Positions 10,748-42,360 of a stretch of DNA of 64,000 bases are shown piece after piece. The DNA comes from a virus. Its lineage: Duplodnaviria > Heunggongvirae > Uroviricota > Caudoviricetes. Positions within the stretch are counted from its first letter, which is position 1. Each line of letters begins with the position of its first letter. The translations under genes were made by a program, and so were the position numbers. The stretch spans positions 13,561-77,560 of the IMG/VR virus record IMGVR_UViG_3300021354_000005; one strand, 5' to 3'. The notes beneath the pieces are model-generated. The model made no database searches. It saw only the letters and a program-made list of their open reading frames with translations, and had not been told where the DNA came from.

Positions 10748-13700
10748 TTATTTAAGAATAGCTGTTCCAGCAATTAATGTACAGTTTATAGGTGATGGTA
10801 ATAATGTAGCACTACCAGCTGTCAATCCACAATTTGTAGATGATACCACAACAGCACTTCCTGGTGTTAATGTACAATCAGACCCTCCACATATATAAGC
10901 ATTAGCTTGATATAGTGCACCTGTTCTTGTTGTATTATATGTAGGAGAATAAGGATTAATATCTATTTGTTGATAATGTTGATCAACTCCAACACAAACC
11001 CAATGTACATTAATATCTTGATTCACCCATTCAGGAGTAACATTTATAGCATCACCACTTAAGTTACAATTCAATATAACTGTTGTAGTGGTTGTAGTAG
11101 TTGGATTAGGAAGCTCTTGTACAGCTATTGCATGTAAGTCACATCCTTCATTCAAACCAGAATAAAATATATTGTTTTCTGCTATATAGAAGTTAGGGAT
11201 ATAGCTATGAAAACTTACCCAACTTTTTGTATTTACATTAAATGATAATGTCCAAGACTTATTACAGAAGTATTTAGGATCTGTAAGATTTACATATTGT
11301 CTAAGTGTTGTTGAACCATAAGTCTTATTTATATAAAACTTCTTAAGAGCACTATCATATTGAATAACTCCTACATAAGCTAACTGAGGAATATAATCTA
11401 ACTTGCTGATAATCACTCTATCATACTTACTATCATATACACCATGTACACCTATACCATTAAAATGATTATCTACATCTGCATTAGCATAATATCTAAG
11501 TATCTCAAATGGTAAGTGATCTGTAATAAATCTGTTCACACCAGAACCAAAGCCAGTGATATCTTCAGGAACATATTTACCATACATACTTAATGATATC
11601 AAAAATATCTGACCTCTCTTAGCATCTATTGTAATTTGTCCTTGAGGAATCTTTAATAAGAACTTATTCTGTGTACCTACATATCCAAGATTTGTTTCAG
11701 CAAAATCTACTGGAGGATTGCCAAACAATGAAGGATTACCCAAATAAGCAGCTTGAGGATTACTTGTATTCATTGTTAACAATGTATTGTATAACAATGA
11801 CTTATTCTCAAATCTAGCTAGAATAGATTTATTCTGAATACCATCTAAAGAAACTAACTTACCAAAGTTTTCTGGAAAGTCAAAGAAAGAAATAGGTGCA
11901 TAGTTTAACCAGCTATTAACTCTTGTACTAGGATTAGATGATTGTTGTTCAGAATATATAACTCTAAATGGATAGTATGTATAACAATTATCAGGTTTCC
12001 AATCTACAGGCAAATGAGAGAAATAGTTTTCTTTATTTTGCTTAGAGAACGTAACATTATATGTATATGTATTATCAAAAGCAATAGGAACAAAAGATTG
12101 TTGTAACCAGTTGTCAGGAATACCAGAGCTTACATGAGGATAGAAGTCTCCTTCTTGATTGTTAAATGCTTGACGTAAATCAGTATTGATAGAAGATTCT
12201 ACATAGAAATATGGTATACCATATGCAAATAAATAGAACTTACCATCATAATAAGCATTTGTTGTACTTACAGTTACAGTTCCAGTCAAATCTTTAGTTG
12301 TACTAGTTGTAGTTGTAGTTGTACTTCCAATTGCTGGATTATTAGGACAGTCAAAGTAATGAGCTTTAACTGATATAATATTTTTAAGACTTGTTTTACC
12401 TGCTTGATAATTACTTAAAATAGACCTAGAAGAATGCCAGTATTGTGGATAAGCCACATTACCTATTTCATCATAATATATATCACTGTCATCAGGAGCT
12501 CCCACTCTATTATCAATAAAGAAAGGAAGTTTGGTTTTTAATGCAAACTTTCCAATAAATGTATCTCCACCAAATATTGTTTCATCTGTACCTGCTGTTG
12601 TAATAAGTCTTTGGAATCCTGTATCAATAGTATTATAAGAATACATTTGTCCCCATTGATTAAGAATTATATTCTTAATAGATCCATAATAGGATACCAC
12701 CTTAATATCTTTTTGATCTTCTGGTGTAGCACAATTGCCATTTTCTGATAAAGTAAATCTTGATATATCAGAAATCTCAGATATTCCATTATTAAGAAGA
12801 TTAGGTGTTCTATTTACATATGGAAGAGGATTAGTTCCTGCTGTCTTTAAATAAACAGAAGATTCTCTTTGATAGTTATTTATTGTAAGATCATCACCAA
12901 CTGATTCTACACCAGGAATAAGATATTGATATATATCAAGTTCTCTTTGTTTAATACCTAAACCATTATCTACAGAAACACCATAATCATAACTAGCTAT
13001 AGAGTTAAATGAATATGCATAGTTTCTTCTAGTGATACCATTTATATAAAGTTGTAAATATGCTTGATAAGCAGTGAACATTGCTGTAGCATCAAGTGTA
13101 CCTGTAGTCATAGCAATATTATAGCTTGAGTTCAAAGCATCTACTTGTGCACTTTCACTTATTAGTTTATATTGAGCATTCTTTTTAACTTGTACAAAAT
13201 GGGCTTTACCAGCACCAAAAATTGCATTCTCTATCTTAAGAACATTACCTAATGTAGGCTGTCCAAAAGAAGTTTCAGGTGAATTGAATACATATCTATA
13301 TTTAGAACCATCATCAGAAAATCCATTCAAATTAGCTGGATAACATATTGTATTCTTATTATTATTATTTATTGTTACACTAGCTTTGTTTGATCCTCCT
13401 ACCACTTTAGGTAATGTAACAGAGTTTACATTTATTGGATTACCTGGATAAACATAAATATTAGTAAGTTGTTGTGTAAGAGCATCTGTATAATTAAACT
13501 CCGTGTAAGTAATATCATAACAGGTTAATACATAAGATGTACCGCTTATATTTGTAATAGTAGCTGTTCCTGTTGTTACAACAGGAAGTGTTACAGAACA
13601 TAAATTAAATATTTCATTACTAGTAAAAGTTCTCACTGCTATTTCGCCTGTATTACAATTAGTATATTGAACTGAACCAGCAATACTTGCTGATATACTA

Positions 13701-19791: not shown

Positions 19792-20910
19792 TTATTTAAC
19801 AGCTATCCCATTCCAATATCTTGAACCAGCAGATGTCATAGCAACCCAAGATGAACCATAATCAGATGAGCAATAAAGATATCCATTTTGTACTGCTAAA
19901 TATTGATGTTGACCACTTGTTGACATTGCTGAAGCTTTAAAATTTAGAGCACCTAATGAAGATGTTGACCAAGTAATTCCATAATCACTAGATAGATATG
20001 CATTATGTCCATAATCTCCTATAATCCAATATTTTCCAGTTGAAGAAATACACGCTGTTCTCCAAGTACCTGTTCCTCCTATCAAAGTAATTTGTGTCCA
20101 AGTAACTCCATAGTCTGTTGATTTCCACGAGTAACCACCATTTTGACAAACTACCTGATACATTCCATCATTTGATATAGCGCAAGCTTCCCAATCTACA
20201 GCAGAAGAATTAATTGCACCTGATATTCTAGTAAAATCTACACCATAATTAGTAGACATTTGTACAAATCCATAACCTGTTGAACCTCCTCCTCCTGCTG
20301 CTGCTAATGCATATTGTCCATTACCAGAAATAGCTACGCATCCATACCACCATTGCCCTGAAGTACTACTATTACGAAAAGTAACTCCATAATCACTTGA
20401 ATATTTCACATAGCTAAAATCAGGCGCATATATTTGATATTGGCCAGTGCTACTAACACCTAAAGAATATGGGTCTTGATAAGGGTCAGTGTCTGGTGTC
20501 CACGTTGCACCATAATTATTAGAAGTTCTAAGAACAGCAGTAGCCCCACCTGTTGACTGATATTGTCCACCCCTAGACATTCCTATTGAAGTCCAATAAT
20601 TTGAGCCTACTGAAGTTAATGCATTCCAAGAAACTCCACCATCTGTTGAACGATATATGTAACCAGGATTCCCATCTATAGCTGTAATATAGTTAGTTCC
20701 TACATTTGAAACTAAATTTGATTTAACAACAAGTTGATTATTAAGTTTAGCTATATCATTTATATAAACATAATACTCTGCTTCACTTTTATTAATTTGT
20801 TTATTACTAACTGGAATTGTATTTTGTAATGTAAATACACCATTATTAACTGCATCCTGTAAGTTATTACATGATACCGTTTGATTATTTGCTAATGCTG
20901 ACCAACTCAT
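19792..20910 (-). CDS. BNR/Asp-box repeat beta-propeller protein (sialidase-like fold); candidate receptor-binding or glycan-active tail protein
   Basis: Seven S-x-D-x-G-x-(T/S)-(W/F) Asp-box repeats: STDGGVSW, SNNYGATW, SSDYGVTF, STNYGVDF, STDYGVTW, SSDYGITW, SSDYGSSW. Confidence 0.7.
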   Translation of the reverse strand: MSWSALANNQTVSCNNLQDAVNNGVFTLQNTIPVSNKQINKSEAEYYVYINDIAKLNNQLVVKSNLVSNVGTNYITAIDGNPGYIYRSTDGGVSWNALTSVGSNYWTSIGMSRGGQYQSTGGATAVLRTSNNYGATWTPDTDPYQDPYSLGVSSTGQYQIYAPDFSYVKYSSDYGVTFRNSSTSGQWWYGCVAISGNGQYALAAAGGGGSTGYGFVQMSTNYGVDFTRISGAINSSAVDWEACAISNDGMYQVVCQNGGYSWKSTDYGVTWTQITLIGGTGTWRTACISSTGKYWIIGDYGHNAYLSSDYGITWSTSSLGALNFKASAMSTSGQHQYLAVQNGYLYCSSDYGSSWVAMTSAGSRYWNGIAVK

Positions 20911-23216
20911 TATTTATTTAATTTAGCTTCTAATTCTGCAATGCGTTTTTCTAAAGCTGCTATTTTTAATGTGTGAACATCTGAATAGTTTACCGTTAAT
21001 TCATCTTCTCCAATTACTGCCTCAGGAATAATTGTCTGTACTTGTTGAGCTGAATAACCAAATCTAACCTTTTCATTATCTTTTCTTGTAAATTTAATTA
21101 CATCTATACCTAAAACATTAACAGTTGGATTTGTTTCTATAACATTCTTAAATCTTATATCTGAACTCTCATAGAAAGCAGAAGCTGTAAAACTATCTGT
21201 ACAACCAGATGCTCCATACATAGTAACACCTGTACCATCATATCTTATTCTTACTGTACTTCCTCCATTAGTATAAAAATACATATTTCCATCACTAGAA
21301 GATGTAATTTGATTTTGATAAGTATTTTCATTACCACCTAAAAAGAATCTTAAAGAACAAATAGTAGTAGAATCAGCAGAAAAATCCCAATAACCAGCAT
21401 CTTTTGAAGAAATATACATTCCTGTCACTGAATTTTTCAAACCATATCTAACAACAGAATTTATATACCATCCACCAATAGTCATATCACTTCCACTAAT
21501 TGTCATAGTGGTGTTAGCTGTAGCACTATTTGATGTACCATTAGCAGTTAATATAGATCCTGAATTTGTTGGAGATATAGAAGTAAATCCAGGTCCTACT
21601 GGTCCCACTGGTCCCACTGGTCCTACTGGTCCCACTGGTCCTGTTCCTCCATTTGAACCATTAGTACCATTTGTACCACTAGTACCACTAGCTCCATTAA
21701 CTCCACTTGTACCACTAGCTCCATTAACTCCACTTGTACCACTAGCTCCAGTAACTCCTCTAACTCCTGCTATTGATAAAGTCCAAGATGTAGCTGTTGT
21801 TGTTCCTACATTATAATCAGCTGTAATTGCAAATGATGTACTACCTGTGATAGTAACTATTCCTTCAAAATAGTTAGAAACAGTATTAACTGCTCTAACT
21901 CTATCGCCTGTTATGTAAGCTCCCTGTCCATTAGTTGTTAATGTAATTACTCCTGTTGATGCAGGAGTGGCACTTGTTGCTGATGTAATATTTGAATATC
22001 CAACACCAGATGTTCCATTTGTACCACTAGTACCATTAGTTCCACTTGTACCTGATGAACCGTTAGTTCCATTTGTACCACTAGTACCATTAGTTCCACT
22101 TGTACCTGATGAACCGTTAGTTCCATTTGTACCACTAGTACCATTAGTTCCACTTGTACCTGATGAACCATTAGTTCCATGTGTACCTGAAGAAGCTGAT
22201 GTACCACTAGAACCATTTGTTCCATTAGTACCAGTTGTACCACTAGAACCAGTTGAACCACTTGTACCTGATGTACCATTACCACCAGCAGCACCATATA
22301 AATTTACAACCCAAACTGCATATGTTCCTGAACCTGTAATTGTTAATACATTAACAGCCATTATACCTGTACCACTATTATAATTAGTAACAGTTCCTTC
22401 CATTGTATTAGAACCATCATATGCTAAAAGTACTGTTTGAGCCACACTATAAGCAAGTCCTGTTGTAACAGTTAATGTACGACTTCCTGTTCCTATTGTT
22501 AAAGATGTAGTAGAAGTTGTAAGATATTTATCTCCATTTGCACCAGCAGTTCCTGATGAACCATTAGTACCAGAAGTTCCTGATGAACCAGAAGAACCAG
22601 ATGTACCACTTGTTCCAGATGAACCACTACTTGCAGATGTTCCTGCAGAACCAGATGTACCACTTGTAGCAGAACTACCAGATGTACCAGCTGTAGCATC
22701 ACGACCTGAAGTTCCAGATGTACCAGATGTACCAGATGAACCATCTGTACCAGAGAAACCAGTAGAACCAGAAGTTCCAGAGCTTCCACTAGATCCATCA
22801 GAACCACTTGTTCCACCTGATCCATTACGACCAGATGTACCACTTATTCCATTAGTTCCAGAAACACCATTAGTTCCAGACACACCACTAGTTCCATTAT
22901 GACCAGATGTAGCACTTGATCCAGATGTACCAGCACTACCAGTAGCACCAGTAGCACCAGATGTTCCAGAAGAGCCATTATGTCCAGAAGAACCAGAAGT
23001 TCCTGAGGTACCATTATGCCCAACAGGGCCTGAACCAATAGCCTCATCTATCTTCTCTAAGGCAGTAGTTAAACAATCTCCATTGTGAACTCCTGAGTTA
23101 GGTAAGTTAGGTCCAATATATTCTACGTGATTTGAATCAGTTTCGCAAGCATTACAACCAGGATTTTCATTTGGTTGATAAAATGCACTATAGCAAGGAT
23201 CGCCAGGTTGACACAT
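20910..23216 (-). CDS. collagen-like tail fibre with a C-terminal peptidase-S74 intramolecular chaperone domain
   Basis: Hundreds of G-X-Y triplets (GTSGTSGSSG...). C-terminal SSDIRFKNVIE matches the SDxRxK auto-cleavage motif and is followed by the coiled-coil LEKRIAELEAKL. Confidence 0.8.
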   Translation of the reverse strand: MCQPGDPCYSAFYQPNENPGCNACETDSNHVEYIGPNLPNSGVHNGDCLTTALEKIDEAIGSGPVGHNGTSGTSGSSGHNGSSGTSGATGATGSAGTSGSSATSGHNGTSGVSGTNGVSGTNGISGTSGRNGSGGTSGSDGSSGSSGTSGSTGFSGTDGSSGTSGTSGTSGRDATAGTSGSSATSGTSGSAGTSASSGSSGTSGTSGSSGSSGTSGTNGSSGTAGANGDKYLTTSTTSLTIGTGSRTLTVTTGLAYSVAQTVLLAYDGSNTMEGTVTNYNSGTGIMAVNVLTITGSGTYAVWVVNLYGAAGGNGTSGTSGSTGSSGTTGTNGTNGSSGTSASSGTHGTNGSSGTSGTNGTSGTNGTNGSSGTSGTNGTSGTNGTNGSSGTSGTNGTSGTNGTSGVGYSNITSATSATPASTGVITLTTNGQGAYITGDRVRAVNTVSNYFEGIVTITGSTSFAITADYNVGTTTATSWTLSIAGVRGVTGASGTSGVNGASGTSGVNGASGTSGTNGTNGSNGGTGPVGPVGPVGPVGPVGPGFTSISPTNSGSILTANGTSNSATANTTMTISGSDMTIGGWYINSVVRYGLKNSVTGMYISSKDAGYWDFSADSTTICSLRFFLGGNENTYQNQITSSSDGNMYFYTNGGSTVRIRYDGTGVTMYGASGCTDSFTASAFYESSDIRFKNVIETNPTVNVLGIDVIKFTRKDNEKVRFGYSAQQVQTIIPEAVIGEDELTVNYSDVHTLKIAALEKRIAELEAKLNK
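22015..22180. repeat. three near-perfect tandem copies of a 54-bp unit inside the collagen-like fibre gene
   Basis: Unit ...tgtaccactagtaccattagttccacttgtacctgatgaaccgttagttccattt x3. Encodes the 18-aa repeat TNGSSGTSGTNGTSGTNG. Confidence 0.7.
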
Positions 23217-31611: not shown

Positions 31612-31730
31612 ATGTAGTTGTATTTATTTGGTTTTCAAGTGTAAAAGTATACTAAGTTAAATTAATAGCAAAGAGATAGAACACTATATCGCTTGATATT
31701 CAGGATAATATAGCATTAATGTTTTTTGCT

Positions 31731-34843: not shown

Positions 34844-36879
34844 TATGTAAACAATTTATTTTTATGTTTTCTAGGAGTTCTTCCAAACATCCCTCCTCTT
34901 GATTCTGTAAATAATACATTTCCTTTCTTCTTTGTAAACATTGCTTTTACTCTCTCATCACCTGATCCTCCCACCTTTCCAATGATTGGGTCCATCTTAA
35001 CTGCTTGAGCAATAGCAAGTTCTGCAGCAATGATACGGTCAAAGTTACCTGAATCATTGTATTGTATAATCTCTTCTAACAATACAGGATCAAATATCTT
35101 ATTCACTCCCAATGTTTCTCTTATAACTACACCATTATCATCCTTCTCTATATGTATTGCTTCTTCCATATACTTCTTTAAACAAGTGTGAAGATAGTCA
35201 ATTATTTTCTGACTTGAACGATGAATTCCATAATCTCTTTTTACAGTGGTATTTGGAACTATTTCTTTAAGCCAATCAGGTTGTCTCTCTAGATAATGTG
35301 CATCTCCCTTACTCTTCATATATTCAATAAAGGATATATCATCATTCTCACAAAGTGTACGTGCATTATAATATTTAATAAGGAGTCTAGCTTGGTCATT
35401 CCAATGATCCTTATTATCTGGTCTTGCACAATAAGAAGCTACAAACATATCTTGATACTTCTCACCTGTTATATCATGCATTCGTTTATAAACATAAACT
35501 GCTCCTAGAGAGGAGCTATATGCTGATTGTCCTTGTCTGTAAGGATCGACTCCTGCTACATACAATCCATATGCTGGATTTTGTATAGGGAATTCATATA
35601 TAATAACAGGTGCATCTTTATTATCACTATTCTTTAAAGGGAAGTTTGTAATAGGTAATTTGTCTGTAAACTCATGCTTTACACCTTCTTCTTCTAGAAT
35701 TAGAATAACAGGAGTTCCTGTTCTTTCTTGTTGTTGAAGTCTAAACTTCTGTCTCTTAGCTGATTCAATATCAAAGATGTTTGTATCCTCATTCAAGAAT
35801 ATATCATCTACCTCTTGTGGGTAGTACATCTTCTCTTTTAAATAAGCTACTCTATCTCCAGCTTTCTTAAGTCTTTCTAAATTCTTATTAGTAATCTCTG
35901 TAGCTTTTTCTTCATTAGAGACTAACATTTTTATATTATGTAATTGAGAATCAATAGGTTCTTTTAAGAATGCTCCAAGTGTAGATTCCTCCTTTGCCTC
36001 CATTCTATACTTGTGATTGATAAACAATCCATGTATACGTTTATCATCTTTCTCATTATTATATGTAAGGAAATTAAAATTCTCTACATCAAACATTAAG
36101 CTTTTAGCATCCATGAATTTCTTCATATCCCCACCAGTCCCAGTAAGTATGGGGCTACATCCCCAACCATAAGGTGTAGTGAAACCTGGAATAGCAGCTT
36201 GTAAGCCTCGAAGGAAATTTCCTTTACCAATTTCATCTATAATTAATTTACGTGGTTTTGTACCTGCAATTGCTTCTTCATTATTACCTTCATCAAGGTT
36301 ACGAATTAGAATAGAAGAAAATGGAATACGTTCACCACCTTTAGTTTTAATACCTAATGTGATTTGGTTCTTCCAATTATCTTCAATCCTCTGCCATCTC
36401 CAATATTCAGGAATGAAATTCAAACCTTTATCAATCTTATCTGTAATAAGTTTAATATCTGGAGCATTCAAACCAGCAATGATGTTTTGGCTATTCTCAT
36501 CAAATGTGGCTCCCCATGCTATATAACTAGCTTCAATAACGGACTTAGCAAAACGTCTAATACCTAGAATGACTAAGCCCCTCTTATCTTGCTGAGCTCT
36601 GTCAATTTCGTTTGTTACAATCCATTCATTATCACGTAGAAAGGGATTGGCATATTTTTGTGATATTCTTCCACGCTCATCAATCACATCCACTTCTGTA
36701 TGCCATATATTTAGATGCCAATATAAAAAGGGGTTAATATAAACCCCATCCATCATAGCACCATTTAAACATAATTCTTTATGGAAATCAAAGAATGGTT
36801 TACACTCCTGAGAGTCTTTATCAGGAATACGCTTCTGATTAATAAACCAGTCTTTGTAATCTATATTCTGTAGTTCCAT
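34843..36879 (-). CDS. terminase large subunit (putative)
   Basis: 678 aa. Walker-B-like LIIDEIG, deviant Walker-A region GIRRFAKS, and a C-terminal nuclease-like acidic motif (VAGVDPY). First large gene of the late operon, followed by the portal. Confidence 0.55.
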   Translation of the reverse strand: MELQNIDYKDWFINQKRIPDKDSQECKPFFDFHKELCLNGAMMDGVYINPFLYWHLNIWHTEVDVIDERGRISQKYANPFLRDNEWIVTNEIDRAQQDKRGLVILGIRRFAKSVIEASYIAWGATFDENSQNIIAGLNAPDIKLITDKIDKGLNFIPEYWRWQRIEDNWKNQITLGIKTKGGERIPFSSILIRNLDEGNNEEAIAGTKPRKLIIDEIGKGNFLRGLQAAIPGFTTPYGWGCSPILTGTGGDMKKFMDAKSLMFDVENFNFLTYNNEKDDKRIHGLFINHKYRMEAKEESTLGAFLKEPIDSQLHNIKMLVSNEEKATEITNKNLERLKKAGDRVAYLKEKMYYPQEVDDIFLNEDTNIFDIESAKRQKFRLQQQERTGTPVILILEEEGVKHEFTDKLPITNFPLKNSDNKDAPVIIYEFPIQNPAYGLYVAGVDPYRQGQSAYSSSLGAVYVYKRMHDITGEKYQDMFVASYCARPDNKDHWNDQARLLIKYYNARTLCENDDISFIEYMKSKGDAHYLERQPDWLKEIVPNTTVKRDYGIHRSSQKIIDYLHTCLKKYMEEAIHIEKDDNGVVIRETLGVNKIFDPVLLEEIIQYNDSGNFDRIIAAELAIAQAVKMDPIIGKVGGSGDERVKAMFTKKKGNVLFTESRGGMFGRTPRKHKNKLFT

Positions 36880-37211
36880 TATTTTCTGTTCTTTAAGAAC
36901 TCTTCAGCTTGGCCTCCTAGTTCTCCCTTACCTCTAATCTCCACCTTAGCTTCTTCCATACTTCTCAACTTATCAACCACCTCAACTAGAGCTAAATAGT
37001 TTTTCATAGTCTCTTGAACAAATTTACCCTGAGCTTCAATAGAGGCAATTACCATAGGTAACATTCCTCCTTTAGCTGTAGGTTTCCACTCAATCCTATC
37101 CTTCAATTCATGAAGGGGATTAGCATTAACATAAGCTTTCCATGAAACAAGCTGTTGCTCAGCCCATTCAAGCTCAGTGTTTATATATGTAGTTTTCTTA
37201 ATAGTCGCCAT
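36879..37211 (-). CDS. small protein (110 aa); candidate terminase small subunit
   Basis: Immediately upstream of the large terminase with a 1-nt overlap. No motif. Confidence 0.3.
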   Translation of the reverse strand: MATIKKTTYINTELEWAEQQLVSWKAYVNANPLHELKDRIEWKPTAKGGMLPMVIASIEAQGKFVQETMKNYLALVEVVDKLRSMEEAKVEIRGKGELGGQAEEFLKNRK

Positions 37212-37482
37212 CTTCTTCCTCCTCTTTTAATATATTATCAAGATCCATTCCCTCTTTTATAATCTTCTCTAGTTCATTATCATCTGTATGTGGAACATCC
37301 ATTCCAATCTCAGTCTTATATTTCTCTAAAGCAAACGCTATTTCTTTATCTGTTATTCCCCATATATCTCCATAATCACTAAGAGCTGTAGCTAAGTGTC
37401 TTCCCAAGTTGTATGTAGGAAAGTCCTTATGTAGTTCTTGTAATATATGAAGAGCTTGTTGGTAGTTATTCTTCTTACTCAT
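37198..37482 (-). CDS. small acidic protein (94 aa)
   Basis: ORF in operon. Confidence 0.4.
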   Translation of the reverse strand: MSKKNNYQQALHILQELHKDFPTYNLGRHLATALSDYGDIWGITDKEIAFALEKYKTEIGMDVPHTDDNELEKIIKEGMDLDNILKEEEEDGDY

Positions 37483-37739
37483 ATTAGTTGATCTAAGTCT
37501 TCTTCAGACAGTTTTTCATCCTTTAAAGACACAAAGTCCATACTTGGAGCATCTTTAAAATTATCTTCAGCACCCTCCATCATATAATCTGATGTGAATG
37601 TGATGGCCATTCTTTCATCATCCCCTTCTGGCACTGCTATTATATCTATATAATCTACCCCTTTATTATATAAGTCCATAAGTATATCTATGAAGTTATC
37701 TAAGGGGATTTTTTTAATTGATGGTACGTTGCTTTCCAT
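37479..37739 (-). CDS. small acidic protein (86 aa)
   Basis: ORF in operon with a 4-nt overlap. Confidence 0.4.
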   Translation of the reverse strand: MESNVPSIKKIPLDNFIDILMDLYNKGVDYIDIIAVPEGDDERMAITFTSDYMMEGAEDNFKDAPSMDFVSLKDEKLSEEDLDQLI

Positions 37740-38025
37740 GGATTTCTTTTTTTAAAGCATCCTCTTCATCAATGGACATTACTTCCTCCCATTTCTTCAA
37801 AGGACACGAACATGATAAACATTTTGTCTTGGCAGCTAGTGTACATCCACAATTTGTACAATGCACATCTGGTCTAACAGATTTATGTTTTGTAGATATT
37901 AATTCACATTCATTACATATGGCCATTCTTTCCTCACCAATCTTTTTTAGATGAGCTCTCATTTCCTTGGCTGGAAATAGGTTGTTTTTCCAACCCTCAT
38001 AAACTTGGGAGAAATTAATCTTCAT
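37714..38025 (-). CDS. Cys-rich zinc-finger protein (103 aa)
   Basis: CNECELISTKHKSVRPDVHCTNCGCTLAAKTKCLSCSCP. Multiple CxxC pairs. Confidence 0.45.
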   Translation of the reverse strand: MKINFSQVYEGWKNNLFPAKEMRAHLKKIGEERMAICNECELISTKHKSVRPDVHCTNCGCTLAAKTKCLSCSCPLKKWEEVMSIDEEDALKKEIHGKQRTIN

Positions 38026-38371
38026 ATGTAGATGTTCTAGCTTTTAATTCATTTATAGAAACTATTGTCTTCTCTAGAGTGACAATAGAAGATCTTCTTT
38101 TCTGTTCTGAAGTTTCTTCATTTTGTATTATCTTCTCTAGAGCCCCTTTCTTAGCATTCAAAGCTCCTATCCTTTTCACTGCCTTCTTGTTGTTAAAGAA
38201 GAACTTTCCAAATCCACTTATCTCCACACTACTGTTTAAATCCATTGCTTCGTTAGCTGACTGAAACTGATGGTTAATTACAGCTTCAATTAACTTCTCA
38301 CTCTTCAGGATTTTTACAGCCAACGTTCTAACTAGGAAATCCTTGACGGACATTGTTATTGGCTTATCCAT
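38015..38371 (-). CDS. HU/IHF-family DNA-binding protein (histone-like)
   Basis: SVEISGFGKFFFNNKKAVKRIGALNAKKG matches the HU beta-arm signature (VxLxGFGxFxV..R.aR.gRNP). 118 aa, basic. Confidence 0.5.
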   Translation of the reverse strand: MDKPITMSVKDFLVRTLAVKILKSEKLIEAVINHQFQSANEAMDLNSSVEISGFGKFFFNNKKAVKRIGALNAKKGALEKIIQNEETSEQKRRSSIVTLEKTIVSINELKARTSTYED

Positions 38372-38720
38372 GTATCACATTAATTTGTAATGTAATGTCC
38401 TTATCAAAATTCAGGACAATAATTGGATTCACCTTTATCTTACTGCCATCCTTTATAAACACCCCTATACGCTTCAGCTTACTTATCATATTATTAATCG
38501 TAGGGGGCGAGGAGTTGTATTTCTTGCAGAACTCTTCTCTGATGTTGGCATAGGAGATGTTTCCCTTTATAGCTGTAAAGGCTATAAGCTGTATCTCCCT
38601 GGTGGTAAGTTTTAAATCATTAACAGCTGACAGCAAACTATAATACTTCTCAGCAGCAGCATAACTATCTGTCACTTGCTTCTTAAGCTTCTGTACTATT
38701 ATTTTGTTTGTTGGTTCCAT
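38364..38720 (-). CDS. putative HTH transcriptional regulator; first gene of the leftward operon
   Basis: C-terminal segment TTREIQLIAFTAIKGNISYANIREEF...INNMISKLKRIGV resembles sigma region-4/LuxR-type helix-turn-helix. Gene abuts the control region. Confidence 0.4.
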   Translation of the reverse strand: MEPTNKIIVQKLKKQVTDSYAAAEKYYSLLSAVNDLKLTTREIQLIAFTAIKGNISYANIREEFCKKYNSSPPTINNMISKLKRIGVFIKDGSKIKVNPIIVLNFDKDITLQINVIHG

Positions 38721-39731
38721 ATATAATTAGAACAAAGGTAGGTGTATTCCATTGATCTTCAAATAACTATTTTAATTATTCATAAACTTATTGCTATATT
38801 ATCCACTATTTTTCTCATTGGTGTATTTAGAAGAACCTAAGCCCTATTCTCCTTCCCCACCCACACTCCCCAAAGTTAATGGTGTCCTTGTGATATAAAC
38901 AAATTTATTTTTAAAATGTGGATAACTTGAATGACAGGATATTATAATCTAGGTACAGCAAGATATTATAAATGGGAGCAACCTGATAAAAATAGGTGCA
39001 AAAGCATATAATATATTATAAACAGTGCAAACTATATTCAAAAACATATAATGTCCCTTATATAGGACAACCTATAGCTTGACATGTCCCTTATAAGACA
39101 CATTATGTTCACAAATAAAGCTTGTTCACGAATACGTGAACAGAAGAAAAATGTGAACAATATGTAAAGCAATAGCTTGACAAAACGTAAGATGGGTAAA
39201 GCCATAGCTTGACTTTTGGCAGAATATAGACTTGTTATATCTTGCCAAATGATTGATAAATGTCCAGATTTTGATCGATAAAACTGGACAATCTAGGAAG
39301 TGAAAAGCTGCCAAACCAGGAAGTCCTTGTTACCTTTATATATAAATGTGTCACAAATATTTGAAAAAGTGTGACATGCCCTGCATGAAACTTTGGAAAA
39401 ATTCATGCAAACATTTAACATGGGCCCATGGAACAATTAACATTAAACACATCTAACTTATTGGTTGTTAAGCAATTAAGTCCATAGTTCCACAAGGAAC
39501 GTTTTACAAAATTTTTTTTCCAATTTTACAAACCTTTTATATTAAGGTGAGGGGAGTCCACACCACATCACAACCCCCTGTGCAAGTTGGGAGGTTGGGG
39601 GTGCTCCCCATGCTTCGAGTGGTCAAATTGAATTCTTAAAACAGAGTTCAGAAAACAGATTTTTGAGACCATACCCTGTCATAACCCTCAACCAGTCATA
39701 ACCCTTTTTACAATCTAAAATAAATAAAATT
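38721..39731. promoter_or_regulatory. divergent control region between late (leftward) and early (rightward) arms; candidate promoters, operators or origin
   Basis: 1 kb noncoding. Contains ATAGCTTGAC x3, TGTTCAC/GTGAACA x4 (including the perfect palindrome TGTTCACG-AATA-CGTGAACA), a 31-bp near-palindrome TGTCCAG...CTGGACA, TGTGTCACA/GTGTGACA, GATATTATAA x2, TGTCCCTTATA x2, GTCATAACCCT x2, a C-rich tract and a GC island. Confidence 0.6.
39546..39625 (+). other. GC-rich structured island (candidate small RNA, leader structure or protein-binding site)
   Basis: GGGGAG at 39551-56 pairs with CTCCCC at 39604-09. Nested CCCCC/GGGGG and GGGG-TGCT-CCCC stems. Sharp GC spike in an otherwise AT-rich spacer, ~100 nt upstream of the first rightward ORF. 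Confidence 0.35.
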
Positions 39732-39953
39732 ATGAGAAGTACAGAAATTATTGCTTACCAATTAGAGAATGATGGTATATGTAGATTTGTTTACCACAAA
39801 TCAATAGAATCATTAGAAGTAGTATCAGTGGATAACTACTTAGGAATGAGAGACTTTTTAAAACGCTCTGGTGGACAACAACTTCCTAATAACAAAGACA
39901 TTCACAAATGGGCTAAAGAAATGGAGACACAGCTCTCTGTTGCTGTTCATTAG
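39732..39953 (+). CDS. hypothetical early protein (73 aa)
   Basis: First ORF of the rightward arm. A-rich start context. Confidence 0.45.
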   Translation: MRSTEIIAYQLENDGICRFVYHKSIESLEVVSVDNYLGMRDFLKRSGGQQLPNNKDIHKWAKEMETQLSVAVH

Positions 39954-40189
39954 TGATGCTTGAACAACTGTAAAAGGTTCTGCAGGACTCATCTCTCACC
40001 CCATTTAAGTTTAATAAACTTGGGTAATAGAAAGAAGAGGTACAGTTGTTCATTCTTCACCATCATCCAGTCTTAACCCTTTAATCGAATTGGGGTGCAA
40101 TAAAGTGTCATATTGTGAGATGAACATTGAAAGATGTCGTGCTCACAATGGATGGACAGCCCCATTTTTAATCATTAAATAACAATTAT

Positions 40190-40459
40190 ATGAACACAAC
40201 TAAGTACATTGAAGAATTTAGAGTTAATGGTAATGGATTTGAACAGTTTTCTGATGATGCTATTGTTTATGCTATTTTAGAGTATTCTAAATATCCAAGA
40301 CATTTTAGTAAAGAAGAAAGAATTGTTTACTTCTATGATAAATGCTGTGAGTATGAACAAAAACCTCAACACACAATAATTGTTGAGTTCGATGAACAGT
40401 ATGGTTTTTTTACAGTATTAGTGCCTCTTTATTGTACAGACACTAATCACAAGGGCTAA
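40190..40459 (+). CDS. hypothetical early protein (89 aa)
   Basis: ORF followed by the small hairpin AAGGG-CTAACC-CCTT. Confidence 0.45.
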   Translation: MNTTKYIEEFRVNGNGFEQFSDDAIVYAILEYSKYPRHFSKEERIVYFYDKCCEYEQKPQHTIIVEFDEQYGFFTVLVPLYCTDTNHKG

Positions 40460-40472
40460 CCCCTTAAACAAC

Positions 40473-40925
40473 TTGAGAATTTCTATTATTAATAAACAAA
40501 AAACAAAACAAATGGCATTAAATTTCAAAGTACGAGAAGCACGTGCACCAATTGCTTCATTAGGTAAAGTAGTAGACGTATTAGGTAAAGGTGGAAAGAT
40601 TGAGTTCAATCCTCTTAACTATGCTGCTACAGACAGACGATTAGTTGCTTACTTAGTAAAAGCTGACGGTAGTGAAGAACAAATCACTTGTTCTCAACCA
40701 GTTAGTGAAGGTGTAAGAAGCAAAGAGATTTCATTGAACCAGTTAATGGGCTTTGAAATCAAAGAACAAGTTAGTGCAGCAGGTGAGGTTTACAACCAAA
40801 TCAACAAGCCTGACAATGCAACAAGCAGAATCAGCTTTGATGCTGATGACATCACTGTTCAAGAGTACAAAGTAGAAGCTCTTACAGAAGATAAGATTAA
40901 ATCATTAATCGCAGTTAGCTTGTAA
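40473..40925 (+). CDS. hypothetical early protein (150 aa; alternative start at 40512 giving MALNFKV...)
   Basis: ORF bracketed by its own strong intrinsic terminator, suggesting a discrete, highly expressed early transcript. Confidence 0.5.
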   Translation: MRISIINKQKTKQMALNFKVREARAPIASLGKVVDVLGKGGKIEFNPLNYAATDRRLVAYLVKADGSEEQITCSQPVSEGVRSKEISLNQLMGFEIKEQVSAAGEVYNQINKPDNATSRISFDADDITVQEYKVEALTEDKIKSLIAVSL

Positions 40926-40930
40926 TTAAT

Positions 40931-40976
40931 AAGAGGGCAGTGTTCCACAAAGAACATTGCTCTCTTTATATATATT
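40931..40976 (+). terminator. rho-independent terminator
   Basis: 15-bp stem AAGAGGGCAGTGTTC/GAACATTGCTCTCTT (two G-U pairs), loop CACAAA, then TATATATATT. Confidence 0.65.
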
Positions 40977-41144
40977 ATGAGGGTGTAGGGGCCAGGGGTT
41001 GAGGGATAACACACTGATTATCAACAACTTCTCTGTAAGAATGAGAATAGGTGTAGGTACTATAGCTGCTTTCAACCCATTATAACAACATTCATAAACT
41101 ATGCTATCCAATAATAATATATATAGCATTAAATAACAAATAAC

Positions 41145-41333
41145 ATGCATACATTAGTAATTACATTCAAACATGGACAACCTATATTTCCTTATAGTAT
41201 TAGATATGATGGAGAACTTATTCATTATAAGATATATGATAATGATTTAGATCATTCTGTTCACACTGATAATATAGATGAGGTTAAGCTTATATCTATT
41301 AGTCTTCTTAATAGTTATATTAGACATATCTAA
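41145..41333 (+). CDS. hypothetical small protein (62 aa)
   Basis: ORF only. Weak call. Confidence 0.25.
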   Translation: MHTLVITFKHGQPIFPYSIRYDGELIHYKIYDNDLDHSVHTDNIDEVKLISISLLNSYIRHI

Positions 41334-41554
41334 TGTACCATTTCTATTTCCCAAGGATAGACAGATAGTGATCAGGACTATGTAGCAATACATTGTAATT
41401 GCTCTGATTAAATGTACATGAACAGCTATTTGAGTACAGAGGGATTTGTTGCATATGAATACATTAGAATATACAGCTGAGGCAACATTAGGCTATATAT
41501 TCGCCTTTTAAACACAACACACTAAAATGGCTGTATACAGCTAACCAACTTATT

Positions 41555-41797
41555 ATGGAAAATAATTATGTAGTTTACTTAAACAAACGCAATGATGTAT
41601 ATGCAAGAGATGCACATACATGGGCAAAGAATAACAATATACTTGTTAAGGATGAAAACATTATCTCTGAGGTGGTATTCTACAACTTCTTAGATAGAGG
41701 TCTTTTAGATGGTAAAGCCATCTATTTTTGTAAAGATATACAAGATGATAGAATAGCTTGGGAAGATAAATTGAATAACCAATACAAAATCAATTAG
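41555..41797 (+). CDS. hypothetical protein (80 aa)
   Basis: ORF. Its stop lies 3 nt from the next start. Confidence 0.45.
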   Translation: MENNYVVYLNKRNDVYARDAHTWAKNNNILVKDENIISEVVFYNFLDRGLLDGKAIYFCKDIQDDRIAWEDKLNNQYKIN

Positions 41798-41799
41798 TT

Positions 41800-42360
41800 A
41801 TGAACACTAAACTACACCAATTAGACAAATTTACAATGTTGTCTTTATTAGAGGACCAACAAGACATGGCTCATAAACAAATGGGCATATCTCATATTAT
41901 ACATTCTTATTATACAAATAATGGATATGTTGAGAGCGATGACAATCATAGTTCTGTTGAGAATTATGAGATTGAAGATAATAAACACCTATATGATTTA
42001 TTATTATTTATGTGCTATGACTTTAGTGAATTTATTCAGAATTATGCTATGGGATATTATATTGATAATCTTCCATTGAATAGAAATCCAATGCTTTTAG
42101 AAATAGAATATGATAATAATGAGTTAATATTCAAAATAGGAGCAGACACAGCTTACACCATCTTAATAGACAAAGAAGATCGTAGTGTAATAGAAGAGAA
42201 TAGAGAGATTGTACACAATTTCTTTAAATGTTATACATATGAAATCATTAAAATTGAGGATAGATGGCATCATGCATACAGTCAAATAAATGACACTAGA
42301 ATAGAAGAATTCATTCAGAAGCATACACATTTAGTAGATTATGTCCTTGAACTTAACTAA
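41800..42360 (+). CDS. hypothetical protein (186 aa)
   Basis: ORF. Confidence 0.45.
   Translation: MNTKLHQLDKFTMLSLLEDQQDMAHKQMGISHIIHSYYTNNGYVESDDNHSSVENYEIEDNKHLYDLLLFMCYDFSEFIQNYAMGYYIDNLPLNRNPMLLEIEYDNNELIFKIGADTAYTILIDKEDRSVIEENREIVHNFFKCYTYEIIKIEDRWHHAYSQINDTRIEEFIQKHTHLVDYVLELN

Follow-up and report, generated by a model that had tools for sequence, protein, structure and literature searches.

A possible modular array of operator sites at the divergent early/late junction of an uncultured relative of the crAss-like phages

The window analysed here is a stretch of 64,000 nucleotides from a virus of the class Caudoviricetes (positions 13,561 to 77,560 of the IMG/VR record IMGVR_UViG_3300021354_000005). 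It contains a single strand-switch junction, at 38721–39731, where the genes diverge: late and packaging genes lie to its left, early and replication genes to its right. An initial annotation had pointed inside this junction to the segment 38930–39400, crowded with iterated and palindromic motifs, and had attributed it to several DNA-binding proteins acting at the early/late boundary and possibly to the initiation of replication. What does this segment do? In our judgement there is close to an even chance that it is an optional, modular array of candidate protein-binding operators placed between back-to-back core promoters. The best reading of its role is that it tunes the early/late switch.

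All the motifs listed by the initial annotation are present in the sequence, with coordinates agreeing within one or two bases. Three exact copies of ATAGCTTGAC were found at 39074 (previously given as 39073), 39172 and 39204, and three of the four exact copies in the 64 kb fall in the array. The heptamer TGTTCAC or its complement GTGAACA occurs four times, at 39106 (+), 39123 (+), 39136–39142 (−) and 39153–39159 (−); the 64 kb hold 14 copies, four of them inside these 54 nt. The perfect palindrome TGTTCACG-AATA-CGTGAACA is located at 39123–39142, and the words GATATTATAA (38938 and 38962) and TGTCCCTTATA (39052 and 39085) are each seen twice. Two descriptions were right in substance and wrong by one base: the TGTCCAG...CTGGACA palindrome at 39261–39290 has a spacer of 16 nt and measures 30 bp, not 31, and the gap between TGTGTCACA (39347–39355) and GTGTGACA (39369–39376) is 13 nt, not 14.

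The composition-matched shuffle that had been suggested as a check was run as 1000 dinucleotide-preserving shuffles of 38930–39400, and the motif density was above expectation and non-random. Seven distinct 10-mers were seen at least twice (0.46 ± 0.90 in the shuffles; 1 of 1000 as high), one 10-mer was seen three times (0.01 in the shuffles; 4 of 1000 as high) and four strand-merged 7-mers were seen at least four times (0.20 in the shuffles; 1 of 1000 as high). Perfect inverted repeats with arms of at least 7 and a spacer of at most 25 formed seven groups, as compared to 0.91 ± 0.94 in the shuffles, none of which reached this value. Among 636 sliding windows of 471 nt taken over the 64 kb, the array alone reached seven inverted-repeat groups.

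The junction was compared to those of relatives. IMG/VR holds 413 related contigs, 80 of which were fetched (terminases 82–89% identical to that of the window; the longest contigs approximately 110–118 kb). The junctions of 66 sequences, 65 related loci and the window, were set in the orientation of the window and dereplicated to 48; the counts out of 48 below and in Table 1 refer to this set. The closest relative is L084, in which the winged-helix protein encoded next to the junction is 98% identical to that of the window. In this comparison a universal core can be told apart from an optional middle, and the flagged array corresponds to the latter. Between the distal leftward promoter P_L2 and a GC-rich element at the head of the early arm, both described below, lie 634 nt in the window, the longest gap observed, 35 nt in L061, and 35–130 nt in 18 of the 48 relatives. 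The array motif families keep one fixed order, with presence/absence variation, in about half of the 48, and in 1.44 Mb of related sequence the array patterns are essentially confined to this junction. The most conserved words of the junction all lie outside 38930–39400. As compared to the window, L084 lacks a 57-nt cassette carrying the TGTTCAC sites (cassette B in Table 1), an 11-nt piece and a 22-nt piece; over the whole array the two are 84.8% identical with 92 gap columns, the fourfold-degenerate sites of neighbouring genes being 87.4% identical. The segment 39401–39536 is 97.1% identical to L084 against the same 87.4%. The array illustrates the growth and shrinkage of phage regulatory DNA by whole sites. 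Three small open reading frames (ORFs) on the − strand inside the array (55, 62 and 47 aa) were rejected as genes in view of the 11- and 22-nt indels relative to L084.

Most sites of the array are dyad-symmetric, and some direct-repeat pairs are spaced by approximately two or three helical turns (Table 1). At least ten distinct motif families are present in 470 bp. Elements absent from the original list are the palindromes at 39215–39249, 39382–39409 and 39487–39500 and the direct-repeat pairs at 22–23 bp. The word ATAGCTTGAC turned out to be the right half of an 18-bp quasi-palindrome, GTmAAGCnATAGCTTkAC. Adjacent pairs of this 18-mer are separated by 32 or 33 bp in 16 cases out of 16, with unrelated intervening sequences. 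Units of the TATAA/GGTGCAA type are also found, in two to five copies per genome, in L001, L012, L018, L036 and L074, and variants of the CYAGGAAGT pair are visible in L004, L010, L011, L012, L013, L018, L030, L031, L032 and L079. In 11 of 25 relatives, 44.5–47.5 nt separate the centre of palindrome K from the ATGGGAG of the GC-rich element downstream. The trinucleotide TGT starts the arms in 35 of 323 junction palindromes; the eight commonest starts in coding controls do not include it, and this bias is restricted to the subclade of the window.

Table 1. Features of the divergent junction, from left to right; positions refer to the window and counts to the 48 dereplicated junctions.
Feature	Position	Strand	Pattern	Relatives	Remarks
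P_L1, proximal leftward promoter (predicted)	38733..38763	-	TTTG-N19-TACCTTTG		Exact pattern match; G of the -7 box 12 nt upstream of the winged-helix ATG
Box G	38792..38804	.	TGCTATATTATCC; consensus TGCTATATTATGCA = TGC-N8-GCA	46/48 (core GCTATATTAT)	About 30 nt upstream of the P_L1 -33 element
P_L2, distal leftward promoter (predicted)	38871..38903	-	TTTG-N21-TAACTTTG		Exact pattern match; followed by G-rich start region GGGGAGTG...
Perfect DnaA-box 9-mer	38917..38925	-	TTATCCACA		Also in L015, L074, L079 and L084 (few relatives inspected there); weak evidence
TATAA/GGTGCAA units	38931..39052	+	(G)ATATTATAA-N3-5-GGTGCAA	12/48 (word GATATTATAA)	Starts at about 38938, 38962, 38984, 39012; extra TATAAT at 39047; spacing 22-33 bp
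Two 18-bp palindromes, TGTCC...GGACA type	39052-39069, 39085-39102	.	TGTCCCTTATA	21/48 (at most 1 mismatch)	Flank a lone ATAGCTTGACA half-site at 39074-39084
Cassette B	39106..39159	.	Four symmetric TGTTCAC half-sites (N10, N6, N10)	4/48	Inner perfect palindrome with 8-bp arms at 39123-39142
Two 18-bp quasi-palindromes	39164-39181, 39196-39213	.	GTAAAGCnATAGCTTGAC	23/48	32 bp apart
Palindrome	39215..39249	.	TTTGGCA-N21-TGCCAAA, inner TATA...TATA	8/48	Arms conserved, centre variable
Palindrome	39261..39290	.	TGTCCAG-N16-CTGGACA	12/48	Arms nearly invariant, spacer differs at most positions
Direct-repeat pair	39293..39324	+	CYAGGAAGT...CYAGGAAGT	5/48 (strict pattern)	23 bp apart
Palindrome	39349..39376	.	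TGTCACA-N14-TGTGACA, central CAAATATTTG	6/48
Palindrome	39382..39409	.	TGCATGAA-N12-TTCATGCA	14/48
Direct repeats	39410..39443	+	AACATTTAACAT / AACAATTAACAT, flanking GGGCCCATGG		22 bp apart
Palindrome K, 14 bp	39487..39500	.	GTTCCA-N2-TGGAAC (GTTCCACAAGGAAC in the window)	26/48
A/T run	39502..39519	+	TTTTACAAAATTTTTTTT	41/48 (AAAATTTT)	AAAATTTT upstream of the GC-rich element
GC-rich element, 72 nt	39537..39608	+	ATGGGAGnGGAGnCTACTCC-N8-AACCCCTCC-N10-GGTTGGGG-N3-CCCCCC		Preceded by a C-rich tract, TTGTrT

Palindromes may be read as double-stranded DNA by proteins or may act by pairing, and the pattern of change allows a choice between the two. The motif arms are 91.7% identical to L084 and the spacers 75.7% (Fisher p = 3e-4). 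Among the variants of the TGTCCAG palindrome are the hybrids TGTCAAG/CTGGACA, TGTCCAG/CTTGACA and TGTCTAG/CTGGACA, as compared to one doubly changed copy. In palindrome K each variant is changed in a single arm (TGAAAC, TGGAAA), with no compensating change in the other. Asymmetry is built into the commonest 18-mer, GTAAAGC..GCTTGAC, which on folding would leave an A-G mismatch. The conservation of the arms, the variability of the spacers, the hybrid half-sites and the fixed 32–33 bp spacing of pairs thus argue for protein-binding sites and not for RNA hairpins, and they indicate that the array sites are sequence-read candidate operators rather than pairing elements.

A transcribed function could nevertheless be imagined. 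The segment 39040–39420 folds far better than shuffles on both strands (z = −6.0 and −6.7), T-rich tails follow two hairpins on the − strand, and in the Cellulophaga phage phi14:2 long intergenic regions give rise to abundant early non-coding RNAs, so that the array might specify a hairpin-rich non-coding RNA of the same kind. Any palindrome array, however, folds well on either strand, and the z-scores, which carry no strand information, are for this reason uninformative on RNA. One-sided arm changes and hybrid half-sites are tolerated, 11- and 22-nt indels separate the window from L084, and no canonical promoter lies inside the array or faces it. The non-coding region of phi14:2 has no comparable palindrome array, and Rfam, searched over 36000–42000 at E ≤ 1, gave no family in the region and two chance microRNA matches outside it. 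A non-coding RNA is therefore very unlikely in our view. A match to mir-1175 at 36313–36384 (+), inside the terminase gene, scored 29 bits (E = 0.001) where the gathering score is 51, and is almost certainly due to chance.

Pairing in DNA is a further possibility. The early promoters of phage N4 are three near-identical hairpins with stems of 5–7 bp and 3-nt loops, and they are read by a virion RNA polymerase. By analogy, the palindromes of the array might extrude as hairpins or cruciforms when the genome end that enters first, supercoiled or partly single-stranded, arrives in the cell, and a virion-delivered polymerase, or the replication machinery, might use them to launch early transcription or priming. 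The inverted repeats do stand where the early arm begins. The crAss-like phages, distant relatives of the present phage, belong to a podophage lineage, and a virion polymerase is found in its crAss-like members; assays of the phi14:2 enzyme used denatured phage DNA and M13 DNA, and no motif is known for its early promoters. Against this, the palindromes are heterogeneous in sequence and size, differ in sequence from those of N4 and are missing from many relatives, and a single element has the size of an N4 hairpin (39123–39142, with an 8-bp stem and a 4-nt loop). No virion RNA polymerase was detected within the 64-kb window by motif or by PDB match: the polymerase-type DxDxD motif is found in none of the large late proteins, and no solved structure matched the 1606-aa virion protein by sequence. 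Both extrusion and its use as a promoter or entry site appear highly improbable; if true, the extruding palindromes would be the counterpart of the N4 hairpin promoters in the wider crAss-related lineage.

The candidate operators lie between elements of the universal core. The primary sigma factor of Bacteroidota (Bacteroides/Flavobacterium) recognizes a -33 TTTG and a -7 TAnnTTTG. Two stretches to the left of the array, P_L1 and P_L2, between 38733 and 38903, match this consensus and its spacing exactly, whereas neither the -7 box nor the promoter pattern was found on either strand of 38930–39400. A pattern of the P_L1 type is present at most 70 nt from the start codon in 45 of the 48 relatives, and both halves of P_L2 rank with the best-conserved 8- to 10-mers there (CCCCAAAG in 35 and CAAATTTATT in 33 of the 48). 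P_L1 and P_L2 are thus predicted host-type promoters of the operon that encodes the winged-helix protein, an HU-like protein, the terminase and the portal. These Bacteroidota-type promoters of the packaging and structural arm also point to the phylum of the host. Since no canonical host -7 box is seen inside the array, the array would constitute upstream DNA for both the leftward and the rightward promoters.

The TTGACA contained in ATAGCTTGAC had been open to a reading as a -35 box, a reading that is not supported. The hexamer belongs to the palindromic 18-mer and also occurs in the reverse orientation in relatives, and the conserved promoters of the junction are instead of the Bacteroidota -33/-7 type. 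Pairs of sigma-70-like hexamers 16–18 bp apart numbered nine, not above chance (6.3 ± 2.5 in the shuffles), and the sole pair using the repeated motif is TTGACA-16-CATTAT at 39079.

On the early side, the GC-rich element was found by nhmmer once in each of the 66 junctions and only once in the 64-kb window, in an otherwise AT-rich genome. The usual first early gene, of the orf150 family, starts at a median of approximately 50 nt past it. The element may be the core of an early promoter, a leader or the core of an origin; we consider it a candidate for the core or leader of the rightward early promoter. As a small ORF it was rejected, as there is a stop after eight codons in L030 and no ATG in the window. 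A structured RNA was rejected as well: RNAalifold gave no structure, covariation was not above that of shuffles, hairpin counts were at shuffle level, and Rfam had no match for the element.

Further along the head of the early arm, the repeat GTCWTAACCCT is seen three times and was met in the closest relatives only. Its third copy is followed by approximately 90 nt of conserved non-coding sequence (segments concerned: 39678–39705, 40070–40080 and 40085–40175), which fold into a long hairpin that ends in CCCCATTTTT; one of its stem pairs changes from G-C to T-A in L084, and its folding z-score is just −1.9. The segment carrying orf73 looks like an insertion beside these repeats.

The remaining core element, box G, differs from the array sites by its distribution. 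A second exact copy exists at 31703–31715 (−), upstream of a 426-aa late gene and in the opposite orientation; the window holds exactly two copies, and the position of the second is conserved in approximately 57 of 77 loci. Both are located 75–95 nt, approximately, upstream of the start of a late gene, which makes box G a candidate site for a late-gene regulator. The genes of the winged-helix protein and the HU-like protein directly adjoin the region, and both are kept in 77 of the 80 related loci. The winged-helix protein is predicted by AlphaFold2 (pLDDT 77) to be a plain winged helix with a MarR/BlaI/MotA-N-like fold. Foldseek returned weak generic matches (the N-terminal domain of T4 MotA, Zur, MarR, BlaI/MecI), the best being MotA with E = 6e-3, and a comparison to PDB sequences gave no significant match. 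More than 2000 homologues exist, some labelled MarR-family by JGI, and in an alignment of 39 of them, each sharing at least 69% identity with the protein, the recognition helix does not vary. The HU/IHF-family protein passed the Pfam PF00216 cutoff narrowly (23.4 bits for a cutoff of 22.4). The initial annotation had named the adjacent helix-turn-helix regulator as one example of the binding proteins. As main binder it is not supported: with the recognition helix invariant and the gene kept, yet the array often missing, the target of this protein is expected to be universal. The best candidate for this target is the TGC-N8-GCA box at 38792.

For the array itself we propose the following mechanism. 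Dimeric DNA-binding proteins would occupy the palindromes, and pairs of sites on the same face of the DNA, such as the 18-mers at 32–33 bp, would be bound cooperatively. The phage HU/IHF-like protein may assist the bending of the DNA. The resulting complex, upstream of both promoters, would set the timing and the strength of early versus late transcription. The features expected of an operator array are found here: a position between predicted divergent promoters, conserved arms with variable spacers, and a fixed helical phasing. Position, statistics, conservation, the contrast of arms and spacers, spacing and the cassette-like, optional evolution are observed; that proteins bind, which ones they are and in which direction they regulate is inferred. 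The earlier view of several DNA-binding proteins at the early/late junction is the best available explanation. It holds in that the region appears to be a control region with non-random motifs, conserved in order and confined to the junction; the helix-turn-helix protein as main binder, the origin, and TTGACA as a -35 element are not supported.

Several observations weigh against this proposal. The array as a whole diverges from L084 at an approximately neutral rate, which implies that individual sites are weakly constrained or quickly replaced, and even the arms (91.7%) are not clearly above the fourfold-degenerate sites (87.4%). The array is dispensable in many relatives. A Pfam search of 13 early-arm ORFs found no helix-turn-helix protein and no recognisable DNA-binding domain, and across 45 relatives the early ORF families showed no clean co-occurrence with the motif families, only correlations at the level of the phylogeny. 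The number of motif families, at least ten, exceeds what two or three recognisable DNA-binding proteins explain.

Near-neutral divergence is also what a largely non-functional palindromic filler would show, with cassettes gained and lost by slippage, template switching or the action of a tiny mobile element. The cassette-like presence/absence pattern and the variation of the gap from 35 to 634 nt agree with it. So does the 57-nt cassette B, which carries TATGT at both borders and whose absence from L084 is a clean indel, and so does a spacer of L032: the 12 nt between the arms of the TGCATGAA palindrome are there the reverse complement of those of the window (one mismatch if inverted, five if not), best explained by an inversion between the arms. 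Cassette B does not, however, behave as a miniature mobile element, being present in a single copy per genome and always at the same site, and its 5-bp TATGT repeat is equally explained by slippage; unlike a mobile element, no cassette occurs elsewhere in the genome. Filler would also have to keep its arms nearly unchanged and its spacers scrambled across relatives with terminases 82–89% identical at the protein level, while maintaining the order of the sites and the 32–33 bp spacing. We rate it as rather unlikely.

Under the operator reading the repeats serve transcription; they might alternatively be the iterons of an origin of replication, with the A/T run at 39502–39519 as the unwinding element and the HU/IHF-like protein bending the DNA. 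Direct-repeat sets at 22–33 bp spacing, a perfect DnaA-box 9-mer at 38917 and genes for a DnaB-like helicase and an SF2 helicase on the adjacent arm are in line with this idea, and the minimum of the cumulative GC skew falls at 39–40 kb. The winged-helix protein also has a faint match to Phage_rep_O (E = 0.005). Other observations speak against it. The skew switch coincides with the switch of gene orientation, and the direction of transcription is a confounding factor. The DnaA-box-like matches are not enriched (22 in the window for 26.6 expected), and the perfect copy was seen in few relatives, those inspected there. The Phage_rep_O match is below threshold (17.7 bits for a cutoff of 28.7), the fold search recovered a generic winged helix only, and no adjacent initiator is recognisable. 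Instead of one iteron there are many different repeat families: the 18-mer exists in two full copies and one half copy, the TATAA/GGTGCAA unit in four or five loose copies, and the other families differ. The array is also optional, the gap being 35–130 nt in 18 of the 48 relatives. The origin function envisaged by the initial annotation is thus not borne out, by the optional array and the coincidence of skew and gene orientation, and we consider it unlikely. If an origin were located at the junction, the universal A/T run and GC-rich element would be a better candidate than the array. Within approximately 1 kb at the junction, the perfect box at 38917–38925 (−) is accompanied by DnaA-like boxes with one mismatch at 38799–38807 (+) and 39827–39835 (−).

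The position of the array directly upstream of the operon for the winged-helix protein, the HU-like protein, the large terminase and the portal raises another question, that of a genome terminus or packaging region, with physical ends or a direct terminal repeat and recognition sites for the terminase, in the manner of lambda cos-Nu1-A or of the N4 and T7 ends. An analogy is offered by crAss001, in which the early genes are at one end of a linear genome with a 576-bp terminal repeat. In addition, the intergenic region contains the ends of 12 of the 80 related contigs by our tally, which supports it weakly. The contig ends are scattered, however, without a single position, and they accumulate in the hypervariable early region too, which is what strain mosaicism would predict. 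The ends of the two near-full-length contigs starting here do not overlap, one of them simply lacking approximately 50 nt around a C-run, and the array is optional in relatives. A terminus at the array is in our opinion distinctly unlikely. In the same tally of 80 contigs, approximately 43 ends lay within 10 kb of the junction on the early side and approximately 8 on the other side (for example L003 and L014/L109), and a contig of 113.9 kb has both its ends in the junction and lacks approximately 50 nt around a C-run. The frequent contig breaks are probably due to strain mosaicism and homopolymer runs, physical termini being a less likely cause.

Taken as an operator array, the locus can be compared to known switches. 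In the central switch of Bacillus phage phi29, the promoters A2c, A2b and A3 are controlled by the regulator p4 and the histone-like protein p6. Common features are a short region between divergent early and late genes, several inverted-repeat sites with spacers of approximately 15 bp, and a dedicated regulator together with a phage-encoded nucleoid-type protein, both of them putative in the present case. The two differ in that there is no sequence or protein homology, the motif families are many more here, relatives can do without the array, promoters of the Bacteroidota -33/-7 type are used, and binding is a proposal. Phage Mu has the operators O1–O3 with an IHF site between the divergent promoters Pe and Pc, and phage lambda has OR and OL. 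There too multiple operators lie between or upstream of divergent promoters and are bound cooperatively at a fixed helical phase with bending of the IHF/HU type, as would be the case here, but one repressor and one operator family suffice, whereas at least ten families, no recognised repressor and no sign of lysogeny are found in the present phage. Iteron origins (lambda ori, P1 oriR, R6K, pSC101) repeat one sequence three to seven times beside a recognisable initiator gene and are indispensable. The array resembles them by its repeat spacing of approximately 22 bp, the adjacent A/T-rich run, the DnaA box and the link to an IHF/HU-type protein, and departs from them by its heterogeneous repeats, the lack of a recognised initiator and its absence from many relatives. 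This kind of feature is well known in other phages, and no new kind of system is revealed; new are the sequences and the degree of modular turnover. The literature on crAss-like early promoters, origins and this junction yielded nothing beyond the work on the phi14:2 polymerase and crAss001. For a phage family that is abundant in environmental metagenomes and whose members are uncultured, the analysis provides a map of the central control region, with its predicted promoters, a box shared by two operons, a universal early-arm element and fast-evolving candidate operators.

The surroundings of the junction are those of a distant, uncultured relative of the crAss-like phages, as judged from the terminase, which is 39% identical to that of Leptolyngbya phage Lbo-JY46, 31% to those of Cellulophaga phages phi17:2 and phi4:1, and approximately 26% to crAss-like ones. 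In phi17:2 the same divergent junction stands upstream of the same operon and measures just 225 nt. A blastn search with the junction DNA against 50,697 phage records gave no match, and no tRNA was found by a tRNA scan. In Lbo-JY46 (L081), the arm carrying the terminase operon reaches the end of the linear record via a tRNA array, the final 990 nt being non-coding.

To the left of 38720, every ORF of at least 90 aa that is consistent with the divergent layout is on the − strand, and to the right of 39732 every such ORF is on the + strand; a few longer ORFs on the opposite strand overlap layout genes. Both the GC and the AT skew flip where the gene orientation flips. The left arm contains the large terminase (PHROG 6681, E = 3e-83), the portal, the major head protein and the 1606-aa virion protein. 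Six small genes lie upstream of the terminase, and the first two encode the winged-helix and the HU/IHF-family proteins, of 118 aa each. Between the HU-like gene and the terminase, a conserved protein of 103 aa (37714–38025, −; PHROG 13558, function unknown) contains three CxxC-type cysteine pairs and is another possible nucleic-acid binder.

The right arm begins with small ORFs of unknown function, followed by genes for the DnaB-like helicase, the SF2 helicase, UDG and a GHKL ATPase. Its head is hypervariable, as seen by comparing 39732–40459 of the window to L001, L016 and L084. The first right-hand ORFs of the window, orf73 and orf89, are present in none of the 80 related loci, and the orf150 gene, which in most cases comes directly after the GC-rich element, stands approximately 900 nt further away in the window. 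At the same position L084 has other small ORFs and a GIY-YIG homing endonuclease. Far from the junction, repeated 10-mers and 7-mers cluster by far most strongly at approximately 21300–22600, with up to 62 repeated 10-mers per 471 nt; this stretch lies inside a 768-aa gene (20910–23216) and presumably corresponds to the tandem-repeat domain of a structural protein.

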